DNA of 64,000 nt, from contig JBDOQK010000008.1 of assembly GCA_040437565.1 (NCBI GenBank), positions 62,001 through 126,000 on the forward strand, given 5' to 3'. This document shows positions 5,740 through 40,467 of this stretch, one piece after another (position 1 is the stretch's first letter; each line of letters opens with the position of its first letter). The stretch is from Albugo candida. Its lineage: Eukaryota. A program made the translations under genes and the position numbers. The notes below the pieces were generated by a model that was not told the DNA's origin, did not search any database, and saw only the letters and a program-made list of their open reading frames with translations.

Positions 5740-7210
5740 ATGAAACTCACCTTTGACGACGTATCGGCTTTGGAAGACGCCATTGGGGTTTACAAAGGTG
5801 TCTCAAGTGCCATGTCTTCTCATTAGAGCTAAAACATCCTCGCTGTAGTAAAGCTTCCGGTGGGCATTACATCTCCGCCACCGAATGAAAAGATCGCTTT
5901 CATCCATGAGCACCTCCACGCGTGCTACACACTACCTTTAACGTATGAGAAGTACCTTTTTATCCTTCAGACGTTTACAAAGAACGTCGGCTCTGAAAGA
6001 GCATTCCTATTCCTTCCCCGATGCCTTTTTGTCGCCGTACGTACCAATACAGTAATGATTTGCTTCATTGCTTCATTAGTTGAGAGCTTTTGTGTGGTGA
6101 TAGCTCGCACCCAACCGGAGCGGAGAGATTAATGGGTTTTCGGTGCTTTCAGCTGTTCATCAGCAAAATCGATCACTCTATCTTTTGCAATGGCTTTATG
6201 AACTGACCTCCGACCGCATCGACTGGATTCCGACACAATTTTTGATTGATGGAATTCAGTGCAGAATACAGACTTCTCGAGGGACACATTTGAGCGTTCT
6301 TGAGGAGTTGGATGATGATTTCCATCCGTTTTATATACTTATCTCCACACGTATGCTTCTCCTTCGTTATGTATTAAAACTCGGGTCGCAATCAGAATGC
6401 GCTCAGCGGGAGTTGGGAATACTTATTGACGATCTGATCAAGTGTCAACTATTGCATGAGCTTATCATGATCACGGAAGTATCGCTTTCTCCATTTTACA
6501 GCTTGCAGGAGAATGCTTTCCATCCGCTTCGAATTCGCGGAATACATCGACAGTATTTGCAGCTTGACAAAGATAAGAATGGAATGCTTTCAGAGACCGA
6601 AATACTTTGTGGATACGGAAAATGCAAAGCCTTTCAGCCGGATCATGTGTATGATTTGACGCCAGTGTTTGTCCATCAGTTATTCGAGGAGTCCAGGACG
6701 TTTCCACCTAACAACGAAATGGATTACAAGACATATATCGACTTTACGATTTACATGATGGACGATACGTCATTGTCATCATTAAGGGTACACTCTGCTT
6801 TTTATTGAAAACGTTGCGTCTGAGCGGAAATGGTTCAGTTCTTTTGGACGGTCTTGGACGTACACAAACAAGGCTTTCTATGCTTTGAAACTATTGATCT
6901 ATTTCTCCGAGACATTGTCGAGAAGAGTATTTGTGAGGATCGCGATGAGCATGAAGAGGGTCAGGAGGGACACAAGGATCGTAACAAAAGTATACAACAG
7001 TTGCGTGTAAGTATCGAGGGATTGTGTTTCACCGTTCCATTACGATTAATTGAAGCATTTTAGATGCAGGTTTTTGACGCAGTGAATCCGGTGAAGAAAG
7101 ATCGTATTACTTGGCAAGACCTAAAGAGATCCAAATTGGGACCCTTAGTCGTACGAGTACTTGTGGATTATCGGTCGTATCGGTCGTTTATTGAACGCTC
7201 GAGCTTCTGA
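5740..7210 (+). CDS. PP2A regulatory subunit B'' gamma-like (PPP2R3C/FASS/TON2 family), EF-hand, multi-exon
   Basis: 'QYLQLDKDKNGMLSETEI', 'MDYKTYIDF', 'FFWTVLDVHKQGFL', and a last exon 'VFDAVNPVKKDRITWQDLKRSKLG...VLVDY' ending TGA at 7208-7210. Confidence 0.8.
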
Positions 7211-7225
7211 AGAAAACGAGCGTTG

Positions 7226-8407
7226 TAGCGTCCTCGCATCTCATTCCGTGTAGCTATCGGCTCTGCGCTCGGGTAGCGGTGCCATTGACATGGCTTTTTA
7301 TTGTGAGCTTCGAGAGCCATTTCCATTTTGGGTTGCATCTTCTCGAGGAGATGGATCGTTAACCGTGAAATTCCGGGGTCAGACTCATATCTTACGAGAA
7401 GTAAAAGTTCGGCAGTGGTGTCGTCATATACAATTCGATATATTCACGTGAAGTATTGGCTTAAAATATGAGAACGTTTATGGTGACCCAATATCAATCG
7501 CTTTGAAGAGCTAAGCATCCATTGTTGTTTCGTCCTATCGTTTTATGCTCGTTGTCGTCTAAAGCGCTATTTGCATCAAGATTATACTTTGCTAGCGCCA
7601 AGCCGCAAGATACGGTCCATGCGGAACATATGGTTGAACTTTACATGAAGGCTTTTGATGAAGGCTTGAAAGTTCATGAATCCGCAGTAAGAAGCTGTTG
7701 CTCGAATTGCCGAGGGTGTACTAAGCCTTTAAACCGCATCCTGACCCGATATCGAAGGATCTCACGNNNNNNNNNNNNNNNNNNNNNNNNNNNNNNNNNN
7801 NNNNNNNNNNNNNNNNNNNNNNNNNNNNNNNNNNNNNNNNNNNNNNNNNNNNNNNNNNNNNNNNNNTAGCGTCCTCGCATCTCATTCCGTGTAGCTATCG
7901 GCTCTGCGCTCGGGTAGCGGTGCCATTGACATGGCTTTTTATTGTGAGCTTCGAGAGCCATTTCCATTTTGGGTTGCATCTTCTCGAGGAGATGGATCGT
8001 TAACCGTGAAATTCCGGGGTCAGACTCATATCTTACGAGAAGTAAAAGTTCGGCAGTGGTGTCGTCATATACAATTCGATATATTCACGTGAAGTATTGG
8101 CTTAAAATATGAGAACGTTTATGGTGACCCAATATCAATCGCTTTGAAGAGCTAAGCATCCATTGTTGTTTCGTCCTATCGTTTTATGCTCGTTGTCGTC
8201 TAAAGCGCTATTTGCATCAAGATTATACTTTGCTAGCGCCAAGCCGCAAGATACGGTCCATGCGGAACATATGGTTGAACTTTACATGAAGGCTTTTGAT
8301 GAAGGCTTGAAAGTTCATGAATCCGCAGTAAGAAGCTGTTGCTCGAATTGCCGAGGGTGTACTAAGCCTTTAAACCGCATCCTGACCCGATATCGAAGGA
8401 TCTCACG
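7226..8407. repeat. 541-bp direct duplication flanking a 100-N gap (7226-7766 = 7867-8407), probable assembly overlap artefact
   Basis: The copies appear identical and abut the gap. The duplicated ORFs at 7522 and 8163 are offset by 641. Confidence 0.85.
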
Positions 8408-8474
8408 TCATCAGCCCACGCAGATGCCTTTATCAGCAAAATTGGCGTCGGCCAAAAGTGAGATTTCCTTGTAG
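8163..8474 (+). CDS. Possible small hypothetical protein (needs an upstream ATG exon)
   Basis: 103-aa open frame with a basic, hydroxylated N-terminus and a CCxxCxxC stretch. It converges on the next gene. The ORF begins at TTG and no family was recognised. Confidence 0.25.
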   Translation: MLFRPIVLCSLSSKALFASRLYFASAKPQDTVHAEHMVELYMKAFDEGLKVHESAVRSCCSNCRGCTKPLNRILTRYRRISRHQPTQMPLSAKLASAKSEISL

Positions 8475-8510
8475 TTTGAGGAGTGGAGTCAATCTTCTTT
8501 ATTCTGAGTA

Positions 8511-9385
8511 CTACATTGCATGCCTCGGGTCAGGCAGTTTGCCTCTGAACTCCATTTGAAAGTCTTGCGCCTGGTAGCGGTACAATCAACAGATTGAGTT
8601 CGTGTATATAACTAATTCGTCAAAAGTTTAGGAATAGAACCTTTACAGCATTGGGGACGCGAGACGGATCATACGTCTCCTTCTAAGTTCTACACTGATG
8701 ATATATCATCTCCCCGTAATGCGAATTCGGTATTGGAATCACAAAATACGAAACGAAAAGCACTGTTGTTTTGGTATCGTATCGTACAAAAGTGCCAACG
8801 ACATTCTTATAGACATGGTCGCAGTTCCTGCGCAATTTCACTAGCAAGCGTAGCGTTGAAGGGATGGTAATGACTTACAAAAAAGTCCCCGCAAGCGGTT
8901 CCCAGCAATAAGTGAGGCTTTGAGTGACGATTGAATCGATTTCTGATAGAAGACTCGACTCTATTCGAGAAAGGAAACGTTCACACGCGACGTAGCCATT
9001 AGTAAAGAGTGAGATCTCTTCATTCGTACACGCATGGTCGTTTTGAACAAGCCATTCTATCAGACAGATAATGAGACGGAATAGCGTGCTCCACATCACT
9101 CCAAGCTGATGACTATTCTTCAAGCTTGGCTTCATACAGCGCCACATTGACGCTGACGAGAACACTTTCATCTCAGTCACATTCTCACTGATGACCACAC
9201 CACCAAATCGAGTAGACACCTCTGCAGCTTCAATAGATAACATTAGGCGGTAACGCACAAATCTCTCACTGTATGTGCATCTCATTAAGGCTGTTCTTAA
9301 ACTCAGCGGTATACCTCGACCTAAAGACTGTGAGCATTCTCTCCAGGTATGCTACCAAGGTCTCGACATTGCAATACGCGTCCAT
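8511..9385 (-). CDS. Hypothetical protein, multi-exon
   Basis: ATG 9385 'MDAYCNVETLVAYLERML...' is followed by a GT-AG intron and the open exon at 8875-9225 ('EVSTRFGG...WEPLAGTF'). The junction phase and 3' exons are tentative and no family was recognised. Confidence 0.4.
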
Positions 9386-9846
9386 TCACTCTATTTCAGG
9401 AGCAGCTTTGCAATAGTCCGTCTAATATGAGCACACATGAAGGTATGACACCTATTTCCTACTTGGCCAGTCGATAATCTATAGCTCCACAAACACCAGA
9501 GAGACCAAATGCATTTAGAGATATAATGACACCGTTGCAACCGCTATCCATCACGCAATACTGGATGCCTGATCATTTATGCAAAGTGGGTGGACGCCTT
9601 CGTACTTGAGTTTCGTCTCACACTTTTACATCGTACATTTAGGTCTGTTACGATTGCGCGACTTCTTTCACGCTATTTCGAAGACGACATCATTGTCGTC
9701 TATGCGGACAAATATTTTGCTACGAATGCAGCGATCACTTTGTCGATCCCGTTCCACACGGTTTTACCCCCGAAAGCGGCCTCATTCGAATTTGTAACTT
9801 TTGTTTTCGGTACATTCACGCGAAAAATACGACAAATGTATCGGAT

Positions 9847-30825: not shown

Positions 30826-32458
30826 ATGCATGAAGCCTCAACTTTGGGAACTTTACGCCAATGTGCCGTCAAAACCGCACTTAACAAATTGCTTCCGTCG
30901 AGCGGCTTCGTACGCGACGCGCGAAATAGATCTTCCAACGCCGTACGATGTTCCATTTTGTATCGAGACAGCCACAATTTCTCATGCTTTCTGAGTAGCA
31001 ATGTGAATGGAAGAGGGATTCCACCGGCTATTCGAGCGTGTCTGCTTGGCGAAGGAACTCTTGTGCATCAATATATCGATAGTCTCAAGCTGATGATGTC
31101 GGAATCGAGATGGCTTGCCAGTGGTCCAAAAGCTGTGATGCACGTCACAAAGGGATGCAAGGTCGGAGAAGGAAGCCAGTCGTTTGACCATATTCAGTTC
31201 ATCAAAGGTCAATTGGATCGGACTCATGAACAACACGTGCGCCAATACTTTTGCCAATTGGATAAGTTCTAAACTTTCTGTTTTGTAGCTTTTGGGTGGA
31301 CATTTGGAAGGCGAAACAGCCATGTTTTCCGTATGGTCGTTAAAGCATCAGCAAATGCGTGCGTCAATTCTGCAAAATGGAGCGTCATGTTATCATTCGT
31401 GCAACGAAGCGTTGGCTGTCGGGTGTTTGGATGGTACCGTGAAAATCTGGGATTTCGCGACGATGGGCGGCTGGCGAGAAAGCACGATTCAAGAGCAGTG
31501 TTTACCGTCGCCGCTTACACCCACAAGCACCGTGTCGCATCGATCAAGCTTGGCTATTGTTCCATTCATTCGCGCTCGATCACGAGAAAAAGTAGTTCAA
31601 GTGTTTTTGGAAAGTGGAGGGTACTTGAATCTTGCAACTGCGACGGATAAAGGCGATGCACATGTTTGGGACGTCACCAAAGGCGAGATTCTTGCCTCTA
31701 TTCCTGCCGCTAGGATTCATAAATCAGCATTACAACGTGCTCGACGAGATGCCAATTCACACGCATATGTGACGACGTTGATGCTGTCCAGAAGCACATT
31801 GATATGCGGCACGTCGTGTGGCTTTATTCGGATATTTGATTTGCGAAGTGGGAAGCTTACACATCGACTCGCAGGACATCCCGGTATGTCTCCATTCATC
31901 TGATACCATTGGATCCTTACGGGTTTCTTTCTTATAATACAGATGCGGTGTCACAAATCGATTCCAGAGGTCGAGTGCTTTGGTCAGGTGGTAAAGACGG
32001 GTCTGTTCGATGGTGGGGCGGAAAGACTGCTAAAGTGTTGAAGAAGTCGCTTATTTGTGACGGCCATGTTTCGGTCTTGAAGATGGACGATGAAGTTGTG
32101 GTTGCAGGGTATAGTCGTCAAGGGATGGAAGCATGGGATGTTCGGACCCAACAACCGCTTTGTACTTTCAGTAATGCCGAGTTTGGAGGCGTACAAGCGC
32201 TCCAGTATGATAAACGAAAAATCGTTGCCGTTTCCACGACCGGAAAGGTAAGCTGGAATGTGAGTCGAAGAAATCGACATTTTGACAAGCCTTCACACTT
32301 GGTAGGCAGCATTGTGGAGATGGTATTCGCCACATCCATTTCTGTCATTCAGTCCTCCAGAACCGTCATCGGAATTCGCATCAATCTGCTACGATCCTCA
32401 CCAGTTGGTTCTAGGAACAAAATGTGGCAAGCTTGTACACTTTGCGACGTCCATATAG
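30826..32458 (+). CDS. WD40-repeat protein (F-box/WD-like propeller), multi-exon
   Basis: WD repeats 'LAVGCLDGTVKIWD', 'ATDKGDAHVWD', 'GTSCGFIRIFDLRSGKLTHRLAGH', 'WSGGKDGSVRWW', 'MEAWDVR'. The N-terminal exon is less certain. Confidence 0.7.
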
Positions 32459-32514
32459 CCTTGGACCTTGGTATCCAACGATGGATATAGAGATCAAAGA
32501 TCCAATTAGAGTGC

Positions 32515-33124
32515 TCAAAAGTTCTCATTGCAAAATGTCGATTTCTCCAAAGCCTCAAAGCCAATATGGAGTGTATATTTTCCATCTCGTCGTTTTCGAA
32601 GTTGTACGGGGAAACACTCTGCTGTCAGGTCGACTCCAATCATACATTTCCCTGTTTCCAACGCAAATGGCCAATGATGACGAGGACAGGAGATGCAGAG
32701 AACGCCATTGATTTCCTCAATATCACCCAAATGCAGTGGCGCTTTTTGATGAGGACACGCATTCCGTATACAGTATACTTTTCCGTCATATTTGATGATA
32801 CCGACTTGAACATCATTCACAGTCACACACTTACCTGTATAAACGTATATATGCAATGCATTAATAGTATCATAAAGTAAATATTTTGAAATATGACGAA
32901 CCGATGCGTTGAGATTGTGAAGTTGCTTTGATTCGCTTGGTGCCGGTGACGCCGAATTCGTATTGTGGCATGCAATGACTTGCTTCTGTTATATCTGTCA
33001 AATAGGCTCGTTTCGCTTAAATCGAGTGAATACACTGACTATTATGGAATTTACCTTGTACAGTCAGACCAGAATCAAACCATAATGTAGCTGCAGGCTC
33101 TGTTCCCTCGGGTTCATTGTTCAT
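32515..33124 (-). CDS. Soluble Rieske [2Fe-2S] domain protein (RFESD-like), three exons
   Basis: Ligand motifs 'NACPHQKAPL' and 'CPRHHWPFALETG', plus 'GDIEEINGVLCI'. ATG at 33124. Confidence 0.85.
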
Positions 33125-33271
33125 TCTTTGAGCGCATGCGGAATTGCTGATACATGCTCAGCCAATCAGCATACTCAACTGTTAGTGTTTTAACCAATCG
33201 CGCATATAATACAGGAACATAATCGCACTCTGATTGGCTGTATTCAATCAATCAAATACAAGAACATTTGC
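33125..33271. promoter_or_regulatory. 147-bp bidirectional promoter with three CCAAT boxes
   Basis: AGCCAATCAG (33160), AACCAATCG (33192) and inverted CTGATTGGCT (33230) lie between divergent ATGs. Confidence 0.65.
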
Positions 33272-34321
33272 ATGTCAGCTAAGGCAAAATCCGATTGGAG
33301 ATGGAATTTCTGGAACCCTGTAGATCGCGATTGGGACCGTACTTTACTCATACGAGCAAATGAGCAACTATGTAACTATACGCTACCTGAAAGCGCAATG
33401 CGAATCCCTTTTATCATTCATCAAATTTGGCTCGGTCCGCACCCGATTCCTGCGTTCTGTCTGCAACAAATGAAGACATGGCAGCAAATACATCCAAAAT
33501 GGGACTATGTGAGAATACACGCATGTTATTCCTCCGTCTGACCTCTGAATATGCATATTAGAAACTGTGGACGGACAATGAACTTTCAACGCTAAAGCTC
33601 CGAAATGAAGTGAGTCAATTTCTCCTATTCACACTGTACTGAATACATCTCAAATGCGAAGAATCGCTTCAATTTGGCAGCGAACTTTGGCGAGAAAAGT
33701 GATATCTTGCGATATGAAATCCTACTGCAATTTGGCGGGCTTTATGTGGATGTGGATTTCAAATGTCTTAAATCATTCGAAAGTTTGTGCAAAGTGAGAA
33801 GTATTCATTCACATTATCCATTCGTTGATCTCACTCGCGTTGAGACTTTCTCATTCGTCACAGGAATTTCAAACACGAGTGTCTTTGAATTGAACAATGG
33901 GCTTCTCGCATGCACACAGCATCACCCAATCATGAGAGAATTAGTCGACACTCTCGCAACACAAAACCCGGCGATGGCACTGACAGACGCGCGAATACTC
34001 GGCAATATCGCAGACTTCACGACAGGAAAGTTTTTTATGCGTCAATCCACTGAATTCATGCAGACAATCAGCCAAACTGGTCCGGGTTTTTTAACAAAAA
34101 CATTCATGCGAGCAATTGGATGGAAAAGCGGCAATAAAATCATTCCTGGGTTTCTTCCCCGTTCAGAATCAGACAATGTCATCGCATTACCATCCGAATA
34201 TTTCTATCCCATTCCAAACCATCTTTCTCATCAAAAGATGCTCGATTTCAAATTACCTGTAGAAGCTATGGCTGTGCACTACTGGTCAAGAACATGGCAG
34301 ACAAATAGCTTGAGAGGATAA
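33272..34321 (+). CDS. GT32-family glycosyltransferase (DXD; OCH1/SUR1-like), multi-exon
   Basis: 'IPFIIHQIWLG', 'HPKWDY/KLWTD', 'KSDILRYEILLQFGGLYVDVD', 'TGPGFLT', 'VHYWSRTW'. Confidence 0.88.
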
Positions 34322-34366
34322 ATGCCAACAATTTCAGCATTTTGATTCAAGTGAAAGTGAGGAAAA

Positions 34367-34846
34367 TCATGCAGAAGTCACACTCTCCCATGAATTTGAT
34401 TCGTACAGACCAATCATGACGCCATCTGGACTTCGAACTGCGGCAATCTGACACGAAATTACGTGAAGATAAAAGCAATGTCTACAGGCTTCATACCTTT
34501 CCATGCGCTGGGTACTTGATGGGTCCATCCAATGTCGCTCCCAGCGTCAAAAGACGTGGTATCAAGTCGTCCATATTCTCAATATTGAAATTCAGGAAAG
34601 GGGAGTATCCCGTGCTGCAAACAGCCTCACTGCAATCACATAATTCTCAGTTGACATAAGCGGATGATTAGTACCATTGAGACCTTACTTTTGCGCAGCT
34701 TTAATACAGAGCGGTATACCGGATTTTGTATCAAATTCCGCAAAGCTCTCGGTCGATTTGATCAGTGATAGCCTCAATCCAGACTGAAAGAATTCCGTCG
34801 ATCGCGTGAGATCGCGGCTTAGAATCAATAGCTGTCGTAACTGCAT
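34367..34846 (-). CDS. VOC/glyoxalase-bleomycin-resistance family protein, three exons
   Basis: Spliced product 'MQLRQLLILSRDLTRSTEFFQSGL...CSTGYSPFLNFNIENMDDLIPRLLTLGATLDGPIKYPAHGKIAAVRSPDGVMIGLYE'. Confidence 0.8.
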
Positions 34847-34919
34847 CACCGTGTAGCCCGTATCATATGATACATTGTCAGTACACATATCCTCTATCCT
34901 TTGATCCGAATACACCTTA

Positions 34920-35159
34920 ATGATGTACGAATGCGACGGCATTTCCATCTGTTATGGATGCCCTTGCGGTGAGATGGTCCCGCTTCCATTGCTTTTCTAC
35001 AGCACACTATGCCATAAACTTGTCTGTAGAAAGCCTTGCTGCAGCGTACAGGAGTTTGAAGCTTATTATTGCGCCAATTTACTGATAAATTTCCCATCTA
35101 AAGAAGCCAATATGTATCAGAATCGATCGAGTCGGAGCTTCGCGTGCGCAACTTGTACC
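34920..35159 (+). CDS. DCTN4: Dynactin p62 subunit, 5' fragment truncated by gap
   Basis: 'YGCPCG...LFYSTLCHKLVC...CSVQEFEAYYCANLLINFPSKEANMYQNRSSRSFACATC' matches the Cys-rich N-terminus of p62. Confidence 0.75.
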
Positions 35160-35259
35160 NNNNNNNNNNNNNNNNNNNNNNNNNNNNNNNNNNNNNNNNN
35201 NNNNNNNNNNNNNNNNNNNNNNNNNNNNNNNNNNNNNNNNNNNNNNNNNNNNNNNNNNN

Positions 35260-36843
35260 TGACACGAGCGATTTCTTGCTGAAGAGATCTAAATTGAGGA
35301 CACTGGAGGCTACGAGCGAGCTTTAGACGTCATCATATGACACGATCGTCTCCACCTCTGAAGGATCGGTTGTAATAGCTTGGGAGGAGATTTCAACGTG
35401 CGATATTTCTCTTCGATGCAAAAAGCGATCGCTGGGAGACATTCCAATATTCGCTTTAATTCAATAATGTTGATTATCGCCATGCGAGAAACGCGAGGAG
35501 TAATGGCTTTTGGAATAAAGACAAGTTGTCCCTGACGTTGACGATAAAGAATATCAGTATTCACAAGCCAGTATTCCGTGCATACAAGAAGACGATCCAG
35601 ATGCGTGAAGTTGCAGAGTTGATCCATCACATCAAAAAACCATCCAGGATGCTCCAGGAATAATGTCACGACTTCTTGTCGAGAAATACTATCGGACGGA
35701 TAGCATCAATGCGAGTCGTATTTGTTCATCCACATTCCCTTACATCGTATTCAAATGACATGGAGGCTGTAGGATCTACAAAATGCTTGAAAAATGACTG
35801 ATTCTGTATAATGGGATATGCTGACCGTCGATCTCAAAAGCCGATTCCCAGCAGTGGTTTTGGTGTTGTTCAGTATTCCTAATAGCGACTACGATCTCTT
35901 GTGTAGAGATACAAAGAGGATCCGATGGAATTGTACTGACTTGCTTCTTGGAGTTGCCGCGAGTGCACTCTAATAGCTCCAGGGATTTTATGGTGGAATA
36001 GTCCATCAATAGCCTATTCAATGCGGCATTCACAACAACCTATTCGAGGATTAGTCTTTGCATATGTGATTTCGTATTCCATACTTTGATCGATCGTTCT
36101 GCGAGATAGACCCCCTGTACAAACTCAATGTATCGAAATAAGCACGCAACAGCTGCCATCAAAACGTAATCCTTTGCATGAGACAGATTTGAGCCTTGTA
36201 AATGTCACTCATTCCATCGAATAACGCACCCGCGTGATGTTGAGATCACTACAATGTGTCATAACTCGCTTCAAATCTTCTCCTCCCTTTGTCTGACTGG
36301 TTGTATTGTATGCACGATGAGTTTTGGATCTTTTCGACCGATCACTTACTCGAAATATTTCCGTGCGAGCGGAATTATTTTGCACATTGTGTTTGCCAAA
36401 CGATTTGCAATTTCTCCATTCACTCGTTGCTTTTGTAGTGTTTCCACAACAAGGATTTCTTTCGGCTACAAGTTCCCCACATATTAGCAAAAGATCTCTC
36501 CTCGAATCCCCATACTTGCAATGCCTCCAGCAGCGAAATGCTTTCCACATAATGAGCCGAATCGATGATGTTCCATAATAAAAGCTCATGAGGTGACGAT
36601 AGATCGATCATCGCGATCCCTAACGCTCTAAAAGTAATTCTTTTTGCCCATGAGTATCTGGAACGTACCTAATTCTCTGGATCGATTTTCGGAGATGGCT
36701 GCAATGAGAACTGTGTCATTGGCATTTTCGGTATTAATCTCAAGTGCTGTCTTGCAGGTTTTCTTCATCCCACTGGCGGAATTGGGTGATTTGACGTCGC
36801 TTTTTTGCGGACATATTTCCATTTGGTGGGTTTCTCGCTGCAT
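35260..36843 (-). CDS. MSH4: Meiotic MutS homolog 4, 5' part truncated by gap, multi-exon
   Basis: 'AISENRSREL/GIAMIDLSSPHELLLWNIIDSAHYVESISLL', 'DYVLMAAVACLFRYIEFVQGVYLAERSIK', 'MDYSTIKSLELL', 'SLLGILNNTKTTAGNRLLRST', 'RQEVVTLFLE...LDRLL'. Confidence 0.82.
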
Positions 36844-37081
36844 TGTGCAACTTCAAGTCTTTGGTTGATTTTGTTATTTACGATAGTAGAGCGTGTAATT
36901 GTGTTATTTATATGAGATTGTTCGCTCGATCTGTTTGACAACAAGTTCAAATGTGTAAACGGAAAAACAAAGAACCAAAAGAACAGTACTTACTGTCGAC
37001 ATTTACGAATATCTTGCGTAAAGGCTTCGCGTTCTCAGCATTCGCTTACATTATATCTCAGCCTGTGAGTAGACGCTGGAG

Positions 37082-37257
37082 TTTGTGCATTGAGCTGAGT
37101 GCTAGTGCTTCCTGTATTCCGAACTGAAATGGATAATCTGATCGATATGTAAATCACAATACTTATGATCACAGATTTGTGTGAATTAACATGCTGATCA
37201 GAATATCCATTTCAGTGCTGAATACGCACGGATCATGTGCTCAAGCAATGCAACAGA
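37082..37257 (+). ncRNA. Long imperfect fold-back, candidate microRNA/hairpin-RNA precursor
   Basis: Perfect 13-bp stem 37123-37135/37204-37216 followed by 7 bp 37137-37143/37196-37202. The stem extends both ways with several G:U pairs that form only on the + strand. It is intergenic. Confidence 0.5.
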
Positions 37258-37691
37258 ATGAGAGCATGTGCCGCCTTTCAATCGCAAGATTATTGACGTG
37301 TATGCTTCAACAAATCGTTTACTACTTTTCCATTTACCCTTTGCTGCGATAGAAAGCCTAATTCGATTATCAAAAAGGGTAGTACTATAACACTTTGGCC
37401 AAACCGGCTACTTGCATCCATCCGCATAGCTAAGAAACTTCGTTCGTCATACGACAGCGATGCTTGGGCCGTAGTAATTGCCTCAAATCACCGCACCCAG
37501 TCCCGCGAATCTGCATCAACTATTTTGCAATACCTATCATTTACGATTATATCGTTATTCTCTCTCTCAGATGAATCGGAAATAACTGTCCGATACGAAC
37601 AGCGACTAAAAATATGTTTTCGCATCTCATAACACATTTTCCACCCTCTTGCCAGCTACTTTTTACACATTCGATCGTAATCAGTAAATCG

Positions 37692-38845
37692 ATGGCGTCA
37701 TTTTTCGCTGGTAAATCACTCGTTTCAGACAAAGGCAGCTTTCTTCGACCGGACAGTATATTTCGTCGGTGGATTGAGCCAGTTTCCAACCCGAATGCCG
37801 TGTTTCCCGCAGGTACGTTTCTTACAAAAGAATCGAGGCCCTGCCTCACTGTCATATTACAGCAAAAGATCGGTACCATCTGTACATTTCGTACGCCTGT
37901 CCTTGGGCAACACGCTGTCTTGCAACTTTGTATCTTAAGAAATTGGACGAATTCATCGGGGTATCCGTAGTACATCCCGTGTTTCAGCGTACCCGACCGA
38001 ATGATCCTCAGGATAAACACGCTGGATGGGCGTTTGTTGATCCAAAGAAGACGCCAACCTTACCGGGTCCTACCGGGTTGGGATCTTACTCATCAGAAGG
38101 AGCGACTTTAGATACAATCAACCATTGTAACTTTGTCCGCGATCTGTACGAGATGTGCTACAAAGGCGAAGTACGATACACTGTGCCAATTTTGTGGGAT
38201 AAAAAGACGAAAACTATCATCAACAATGAATCGGCTGACATTGTGCGCATGTTTAATTCCGCTTTTGACTCTTTCGTGCTATCACCGACCATCGATCTAT
38301 ACCCAAACAAGCTCCAGAATCAAATCGATGAGATTAATGCGTGGGTGTATGATGGTATCAATAACGGAGTCTACAAATGTGGTTTTGCTCAATCTCAGCA
38401 AGCGTACGATGAAGCGGTCGAAACTCTTTTTGCATCTTTGGATAAAGCTGAAGACATCCTCACCTCTCAGCGATATCTTTGTGGAAGGTGCTTCACAGAG
38501 GCAGATTTGAGGCTGTTTATGACTCTGGTACGTTTCGACGAGGTGTATGTGGTGCATTTCAAAACGAATAAGAAGATGATTGAAGACTACCCCAACTTAC
38601 GAAATGTAAGAATCCTCCTGATCGCTAAAGCGCTTTGTGAACTGACTCTGACTCGTTTTCAGTATCTTCGTGAGATTTATCAGATGCCAGAAGTCAAGAA
38701 AGCGATCAATATGCAGCATATCAAGCTTCATTACTATGCATCTCATACTCACATCAATACATTTGGTATCGTCCCAATCGGACCAAATTACGACTACAAC
38801 ACAAAACATGATCGAAACAGGCTCAGCGCTGCCCCTACGAAGTAA
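37692..38845 (+). CDS. Glutathionyl-hydroquinone reductase (ECM4/YqjG, GST Xi/omega-like), three exons
   Basis: 'GSFLRPDSIFRRWI', 'RYHLYISYACPWATR', 'YTVPILWDKKTKTIINNESADIVRMFN', 'INNGVYKCGFA', 'LVRFDEVY', 'HIKLHYY'. An upstream in-frame ATG at 37614 is also possible. Confidence 0.92.
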
Positions 38846-38980
38846 ATTTTGTGCTTTTAAACGCAGATAGTTCTATAAGCATAATAGCAAACACCAGATA
38901 TTTCTACGCTGAAACGACTTGGATTCTGTAGTCCCTGACGAGGTGACCGTGCCCACTTCCTTGAACGACCGGTCATTCTC

Positions 38981-40467
38981 ATGGCGTCCAAGTTTGCAAA
39001 GACGCTGCAGATTCCAAGTGAGTTCCCGGAGACAATGCGAGAATTTGCACGCGAGGTTTTACGTCAACAGGGAAAAGTAGAGACACGCGAAGCCATTATA
39101 CATTTTGGAGTTTCGTACTTTCAGAGTCGAATCGAGAAACGCGCAAAGGACACGGAAGAGCCAATTCCAACAGATGCTTCCGTAGCTGCTTATATGAAAC
39201 ATTCTGACGAGCGCATTTACGAGATTTTAAGAGAAATCGTACAAAAGGCGATACAACAAAACAACAACAACGCGCGCGTTCCGTATGATCTCCTGAAGGA
39301 AGTGATGTGTCAGATAAAAGAGATCTTAAATCTGTCTCCCATTGAGCTGAATGCGTTTTACGCTCAAGTGGCGGAAGATGAGGATGCGACCGTCGATCTC
39401 TCAGGTGATATTTTTGAGGATACTCTTACTGTGAAAGACTCATGAATTTGTGTTTGAGCAGAGATTCTTCCTCTCACATTCAAAGCAGCCAAATATTTGC
39501 GAAGTAGCAAAAACGAAAGGGAGTTGAGAGCTCAGAATCTTGAGAAGAAGTACCAATTACAAGATATGATGCTTCACGGAATGTTTCACGACGAGATGGA
39601 TAGTATTCTCCGAGATATTCTCCATCGAAATGAAGTGGTAAAAGCTGGAGTGTTGGGTCGAAAGCACTTGAAAGCGTGTCTGAGGGATGAGGATCTAGGC
39701 TTCTCCACCGCGGAAGTGAATGTTCTGATGGCTGAAGCAACAAATGACGTCAGTGATGACATGTCTGATTTCATTTCGATTTGTTACACAAAGCTCCGAG
39801 ACGTATTTTTGCATGGTATTATCGAATTTCCGAGTCAACGAGAAGCAGTATCAGACTCTTTATACAATGCATTCATCAACGTTGACGAAGACGGATCAGG
39901 TTTTCTGCCGACCTTTGAGCTCGTGAAAGCGTCTCGAGATGCTGATGTGGGCCTTACAAAAGTACAAATTGTCGTTTTAATGGCCGAAGCTGAAGAGAAT
40001 TCGCAGGGTCTCGTAAATTTTGAGAAATATGCGACTCGGGCCGCTTTGATGGGAGTCTTCTTCATAAGTTTCGAATATCAGCAGCAATTAGCCCAGTTTT
40101 CTCGAAAATTTCGTGCCACCAGCGCTTACTATCGAGTTTTCGACTTGGATCAGCCCGCATTTGAGGTATACTTATTTTTCGAAGTAAACTCATACAGCGT
40201 TTGATCGTTCCCTTGTCTTAGGATACTCTTTCAACGGCACTGGAAACCACAGACGCAGATCAACGTGGTGTCTTGGATCGTGATGAAATTGTGGAAGTAA
40301 TTCAAAGCTCATTTGGTGACATAACCATACGACAAATGCGATGTCTATTGGCATTTGCCGTTAGGAGTTCAAACAGTTTGGAATATGAATACCATTCAAT
40401 CATTCGAAACGCATTCCAAGCACTTCAGCGGCTTCAAGAGTATGACTCCATGATCGCAGAGATGTAG
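38981..40467 (+). CDS. RIIa dimerization/docking domain + EF-hand protein (radial spoke RSP7-like), three exons
   Basis: RIIa motif 'LQIPSEFPETMREFAREVLRQQ...IIHFGVSYF'. EF-hands include 'DEDGSGFLPTFE' and 'DADQRGVLDRDE'. Confidence 0.72.

Follow-up and report, generated by a model that had tools for sequence, protein, structure and literature searches.

The gap between two divergent genes of Albugo candida holds a long fold-back, and the question it raises is whether this is the precursor of a small RNA or something else. The organism is an obligate biotroph, a plant parasite of the white-rust type, which reproduces both clonally and sexually. Within the window analysed here, which is the whole stretch of 64,000 nucleotides, the fold-back lies between a MutS-family gene on the minus strand and a GST-fold gene on the plus strand, placed head-to-head. 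The initial annotation described it as an intergenic, pre-miRNA-like hairpin of about 175 nt and proposed a miRNA or hairpin-RNA locus. The hairpin is real and smaller than that annotation gave, and it is probably functional. We see an even chance that it is a Dicer-processed hairpin-RNA or MIRNA-like locus, that is, a single-copy non-coding hairpin under purifying selection and a predicted substrate of a Dicer-like enzyme; a precise miRNA takes about half of that chance, and heterogeneous 21-nt siRNAs take the remainder. The basis of this reading is the stem, its rarity and copy number, the pattern of lost pairs in comparison with a dead duplicate, an RNA contig that spans it, and the occurrence of Piwi and RNase III genes in the genome.

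The only part of the hairpin that exceeds chance is a core fold-back of 112 bases (37114-37225), in which the segments 37123-35 and 37204-16 are exact reverse complements, as the annotation had stated. The 176-nt region folds at -67.5 kcal/mol on the plus strand (z -6.6), an energy matched by 0/200 shuffles, and the minus strand is also far past chance (-58.4, z -5.6, again 0/200). For the core the energies are -44.5 on the plus strand against -41.7 on the minus strand, with an AMFE of -39.7 kcal/mol per 100 nt, a GC content of 33%, and 2 G:U against 1 A.C as pairing oddities. The larger extent does not hold: when the core is kept fixed and the flanks are shuffled, 41 of 200 shuffles fold equally well (z -0.8), and the outer pairs have a probability of about 0.25 in a 337-nt context, where they are a minor form. 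An extended 310-nt fold of the plus strand was rejected as not significant (7/120 against shuffled flanks, z -1.4; outer layer 11/120), and 21 of the 73 outer pairs of this fold do not form in the duplicate. Assignment to the plus strand had been argued from G:U pairs. All six named pairs are indeed G/T oppositions, and the count is 7/67 on the plus strand versus 1/60 on the minus strand (two-sided binomial p about 0.07, by hand arithmetic), but the minus strand folds too, and the bias does not fix the strand because 5 of the 7 pairs fall outside the core. As regards the MIRNA structural criteria quoted in PMC9757828, there is a single stem, and its duplex region is free of secondary stems and large loops. 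The 21/21 duplex proposed for 37123-43/37198-218 does have correct 2-nt 3' overhangs, 18 Watson-Crick pairs and one A.A, which is a weak criterion, since a 21-nt duplex with 2-nt overhangs can be drawn in many registers of a 45-bp stem.

Table. Features of the hairpin gap and of the two genes beside it (window positions).
Feature	Position	Strand	Remarks
MutS-family gene, 5' coding exons	36350..36843	-	in-frame ATGs at 36843 and 36822; 'MSH4' is the label of the initial annotation
5' leader intron of MutS-family gene, 63 nt, GT-AG	36931..36993	-	spliced joint in run X1 and splice ends
Initiator-like motif CATTTACGAWTAT, copy 1	37000..37012	+	candidate start of a plus-strand hairpin transcript
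Left flank	37050..37113		conserved like the core (6/64 differences); pairing not significant
Core stem, left arm	37114..37158		inverted repeat; joined to the right arm by 38 Watson-Crick and 2 G:U pairs
Terminal loop, 21 nt	37159..37179		fold; 4/21 sites differ from the dead duplicate, about the neutral rate
Core stem, right arm	37180..37225		inverted repeat; one polymorphic site, 37217, unpaired
Right half of the initially annotated outer stem	37226..37257		pairing at chance level; 5/32 differences from the duplicate
Initiator-like motif CATTTACGAWTAT, copy 2	37538..37550	+	candidate start of the GST mRNA
GST-fold gene, 348 aa, two introns	37692..38845	+	'glutathionyl-hydroquinone reductase' is the label of the initial annotation

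An ungapped inverted-repeat scan was run over 494,000 bases, comprising the 64-kb window, a further 400 kb of contig C8 and 30 kb of contig C76. The hairpin, with a score of 23.5, was the sole match at a score of at least 15, and in three shuffled sets the number of matches was 1, 0 and 1, the highest score being 16. A search of the 36.6-Mb assembly (7503 contigs), which passes over very common words, returned two loci only, the second of them on contig C76, and no third homologue of either arm. Rfam gave 5 weak matches, all far under their gathering scores (the best at 29.2 bits versus 76); no tRNA was found at the hairpin and no long ORF over it, and a phage collection gave no match.

The second locus belongs to a gene block of about 7 kb that is duplicated at 82-83% identity (window 32170-39327 versus C76:2760-12721, aligning to window 32170-35159 and 35450-39327). 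Four genes or gene parts were examined in the C76 copy; in these coding stretches the frameshifting indels number 8, 1, 5 and 3 (17 altogether) and the stops 2, 1, 2 and 2 (7 altogether), and the window counterparts are open. The duplicate is therefore dead, pseudogenised in all four stretches, and its broken genes make it a neutral control. A loose end in sequencing run X11 matches C76 sequence, so the duplicate is not peculiar to the present assembly.

Measured against this control, the hairpin has changed about as little as amino acid-determining positions. The differences from the C76 copy amount to 177/1433 at 0-fold sites (12.4%), 59/313 at 4-fold sites (18.8%) and 62/317 in introns (19.6%). 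The 176-nt hairpin differs at 20/176 positions (11.4%), compared with 132/680 (19.4%) in the gap outside it (p=0.015) and with the 0-fold sites (p=0.81), and 9.6% of all 176-nt windows of the duplicated block are conserved at least as much. In the core arms there are 8/91 differences, versus 141/744 in the remainder of the gap (p=0.014, with boundaries picked after the data were seen). Six of the eight arm differences are at paired sites (37132, 37138, 37140, 37189, 37223 and 37225), and at each of them the window has a Watson-Crick pair where the duplicate has a wobble or mismatch; the opposite pattern occurs at no position. The imperfections of the window's own stem are non-Watson-Crick in the duplicate as well. 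It follows from these shared imperfections and the absence of a reverse case that the stem predates the duplication and that every pair has been kept in the window lineage from then on. Under neutral decay that lineage would be expected to have lost 5.3-7.4 pairs, which gives P(0) = 0.005-0.0006, or P = 0.03-0.005 if one loss is permitted; the structure is defined on the copy chosen for its good folding, and a simple polarity test for 0/6 yields only p=0.016-0.069. The duplicate core folds at -25.9 (plus) and -33.1 (minus), inside simulated neutral decay (-28.4 +/- 7.4). Retention of pairs in the window and their loss in the duplicate point to purifying selection as the probable cause, as judged from this comparison with the dead duplicate and one other haplotype.

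Several observations bear on what exactly would be constrained. Conservation of the unpaired left flank equals that of the stem. What is constrained may therefore be promoter sequence, and the flank could be either that or a side hairpin. Paired and unpaired sites of the 337-nt fold differ equally (26/187 versus 12/98), and compensatory double changes between window and duplicate number 0 in 67 pairs. A second haplotype, seen in runs X1 and X11, has one core difference, at an unpaired base; the core thus has one polymorphic site in 112, against 10 in 466 on its right but also only 1 in 270 on its left, a weak contrast. Orthologues were sought in metagenomes with the neighbouring 154-aa protein (0/264 candidates) and through GST loci, among which 80 distant ones of 451 were kept (at most 63% identical), with 0/80 matching the gap by blastn.

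The gap is transcribed, at least in part. A run search over 11 runs turned up none recorded as an RNA source of the sequence, a result that weighs neither way. Among four runs compared, run X1 has 7 spliced joints and hence contains mRNA, runs X9 and X11 have none, and run X3, which reads through two introns, is probably DNA. The leader intron lies upstream of the MutS start codon, and the transcript of that gene thus begins to the right of 36994. The description 'intergenic' is not confirmed, since the spliced 5' leader of the left gene takes up some of the gap. A single X1 contig spans 36994-37809 without a break and so crosses the hairpin; such contigs are strandless, may derive partly from DNA and are no proof of a single transcript. 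A leader holding the hairpin would contain 11 upstream ATGs on the plus strand or up to 7 on the minus strand, and with several in either one, the carrier RNA is likely to be non-coding or silent and unlikely to be an efficiently translated mRNA. One upstream ATG of the MutS-family gene is at 37002 on the minus strand. As for start sites, the motif CATTTACGAWTAT has 2 copies in 928,060 bases searched, both inside the hairpin gap, and a perfect match to the initiator consensus YCAYTYY (PMC3599244) at 37261 on the minus strand is a candidate start of a minus-strand precursor. From the consensus, hand arithmetic gives a chance rate of about one such match per kb per strand. A local initiator-FPR spacing was sought in 928 kb and gave no clear signal.

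This minus-strand leader is the setting of a different explanation, in which the stem and the upstream ATGs of a long MutS-family (MSH4) 5' leader act in cis to block translation, with no diffusible small RNA. We consider it rather unlikely, even if it predicts the same constraint pattern and the minus-strand fold reaches z -5.6. The leader begins to the right of 36994, no farther than about 120 nt from the core, and if it began at the initiator at 37261 it would include the stem together with 7 upstream ATGs. That start site is only a candidate, however, with an initiator of this kind expected about once per kb per strand, and the plus strand folds better at every tested length.

The function might also be exercised by DNA, with the RNA fold incidental: an inverted duplication of the core promoter serving the two divergent genes, or a cruciform. 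Each arm has a perfect CCATTTC initiator directed outward, at 37132 (minus) toward MSH4 and at 37207 (plus) toward GST, the genes on either side of the element lie head-to-head, and conservation extends into the unpaired flank. Yet the palindrome makes both initiators a single observation, no FPR follows either of them, arms of 45 bp far exceed a factor site, and the RNA contig spans the stretch between both initiators, all of which leaves this explanation improbable in our opinion.

To about the same low degree we credit a functionless inverted repeat produced by replication template switching and undecayed by luck or by arm-to-arm repair. Template switching is reportedly able to create and maintain hairpins (PMC10710096; 10.1101/2021.04.15.439925), the lack of a third arm homologue fits a local origin, and the constraint statistics are post hoc. 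Against this, the duplication, whose neutral sites have by now diverged by about 19%, is younger than the stem and its imperfections. Had the repeat survived by luck, many part-decayed repeats with scores of 15-21 would be expected, and there are none in the 494 kb; arm-to-arm repair predicts double changes, and 0 are seen.

A combination of cis and trans effects, with the stem in the spliced MSH4 leader cropped by a Dicer-like enzyme that destroys the mRNA in cis outside meiosis and frees a small RNA, has in our view a slim chance. If true, Dicer cropping of the MSH4 leader would be an RNAi-based gating of a meiotic gene. That the hairpin is left over from a MITE or some other non-autonomous DNA transposon, for which one could cite a MITE-sized inverted repeat in a non-coding gap, is very improbable, and the annotation's own argument against a MITE is upheld, because the sole other copy found in the 36.6 Mb, by a search that skips very common words, sits in a pseudogenised, 82%-identical segmental duplicate with broken genes, the best pairing is internal, and neither many dispersed copies nor terminal inverted repeats with a flanking direct repeat as target-site duplication at three candidate end points were found.

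Returning to the Dicer-processed hairpin, a Pol II transcript crossing the gap would fold into the 45-bp stem in vivo, a Dicer-like enzyme would then free an RNA of about 21 nt, and Argonaute would turn this RNA, from whichever strand it might derive, on a putative target transcript. The machinery presumed by the annotation is present in the genome as 4 Piwi and 4 RNase III domain matches, two of the latter lying in tandem within one 1218-aa frame (domain matches only). The proposal of a miRNA or hairpin-RNA locus is supported in part, by the signs of constraint on the stem, the RNA-contig cover, the Piwi and RNase III genes and the case against a MITE. Neither its strand argument from G:U pairs nor the extent of 175 nt finds support.

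Target prediction, suggested in the annotation as a follow-up, gave no target above chance. A genome-wide search with one 21-mer returned one non-self site with 3 mismatches, and 0 for the reversed control. This site (C22:179856-179876; L011:1501-1521) is on the sense strand of a leucine-rich-repeat gene, which we take to be LRRC6-like. A plant-style scan with all arm 21-mers covered about 0.5 of 36.6 Mb. Here a minus-strand arm 21-mer gives the site a score of 3.0 and shuffled arms reach 3.5, and the site was rejected as chance.

The locus most likely works like an oomycete hairpin-RNA or milRNA locus and is a candidate member of that known class. Very few oomycete miRNAs are well supported, and one family came out of the founding study (PMC3804510). 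Like the Phytophthora MIR8788 loci described there (136-140 nt), the hairpin is an oomycete fold-back of similar size, with arms more conserved than the loop and low copy number; of the two, it is MIR8788 only for which miR and miR* have been sequenced, a strand bias and cleavage of an AAAP target have been observed and orthologues are known from three species (PMC3804510). Membership of the MIR8788 family was rejected in a by-eye comparison, the GC-rich probe in PMC3804510 being unlike arms of 33% GC. Phytophthora inverted repeats, as that source presents them, give mainly 21-nt RNAs, from heterogeneous to precise, and pin-IR2758 and other hairpin-siRNA loci are likewise inverted repeats proposed to be diced to RNAs of about 21 nt; pin-IR2758 is 714 nt long and heterogeneous, whereas a 45-bp stem between two divergent genes is found here (PMC3804510). 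There is also a likeness to the species-specific milRNAs of Phytophthora, Pythium and Lagenidium, with precursors that are mostly intergenic and mostly confined to one species. Those milRNAs were called from sRNA-seq, while the present hairpin is known from sequence and an RNA contig, and the name Albugo does not occur in the main text of that paper (PMC10080066). No published work on Albugo small RNAs was found in the open-access literature, most subscription papers being outside the scope of the search. We think that a constrained, RNA-covered, single-copy stem is a concrete small-RNA candidate in the Albugo lineage.

The dead duplicate block can serve again as a neutral reference when constrained non-coding DNA is sought in this genome. 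It also bears on the neighbouring genes. The MutS_V domain was confirmed only in the continuation of the C76 duplicate, the matching window part falling at an assembly gap. The N gap at window 35160-35259 probably conceals about 3 kb of sequence, with the MutS-family gene's MutS ATPase part among it; this part was found in the C76 copy at 6572-9751 and nowhere else. At the 3' end of the GST gene (window 38640-38815) there are only 3-4% differences from the dead duplicate, far under the block average, and gene conversion is a possible cause.
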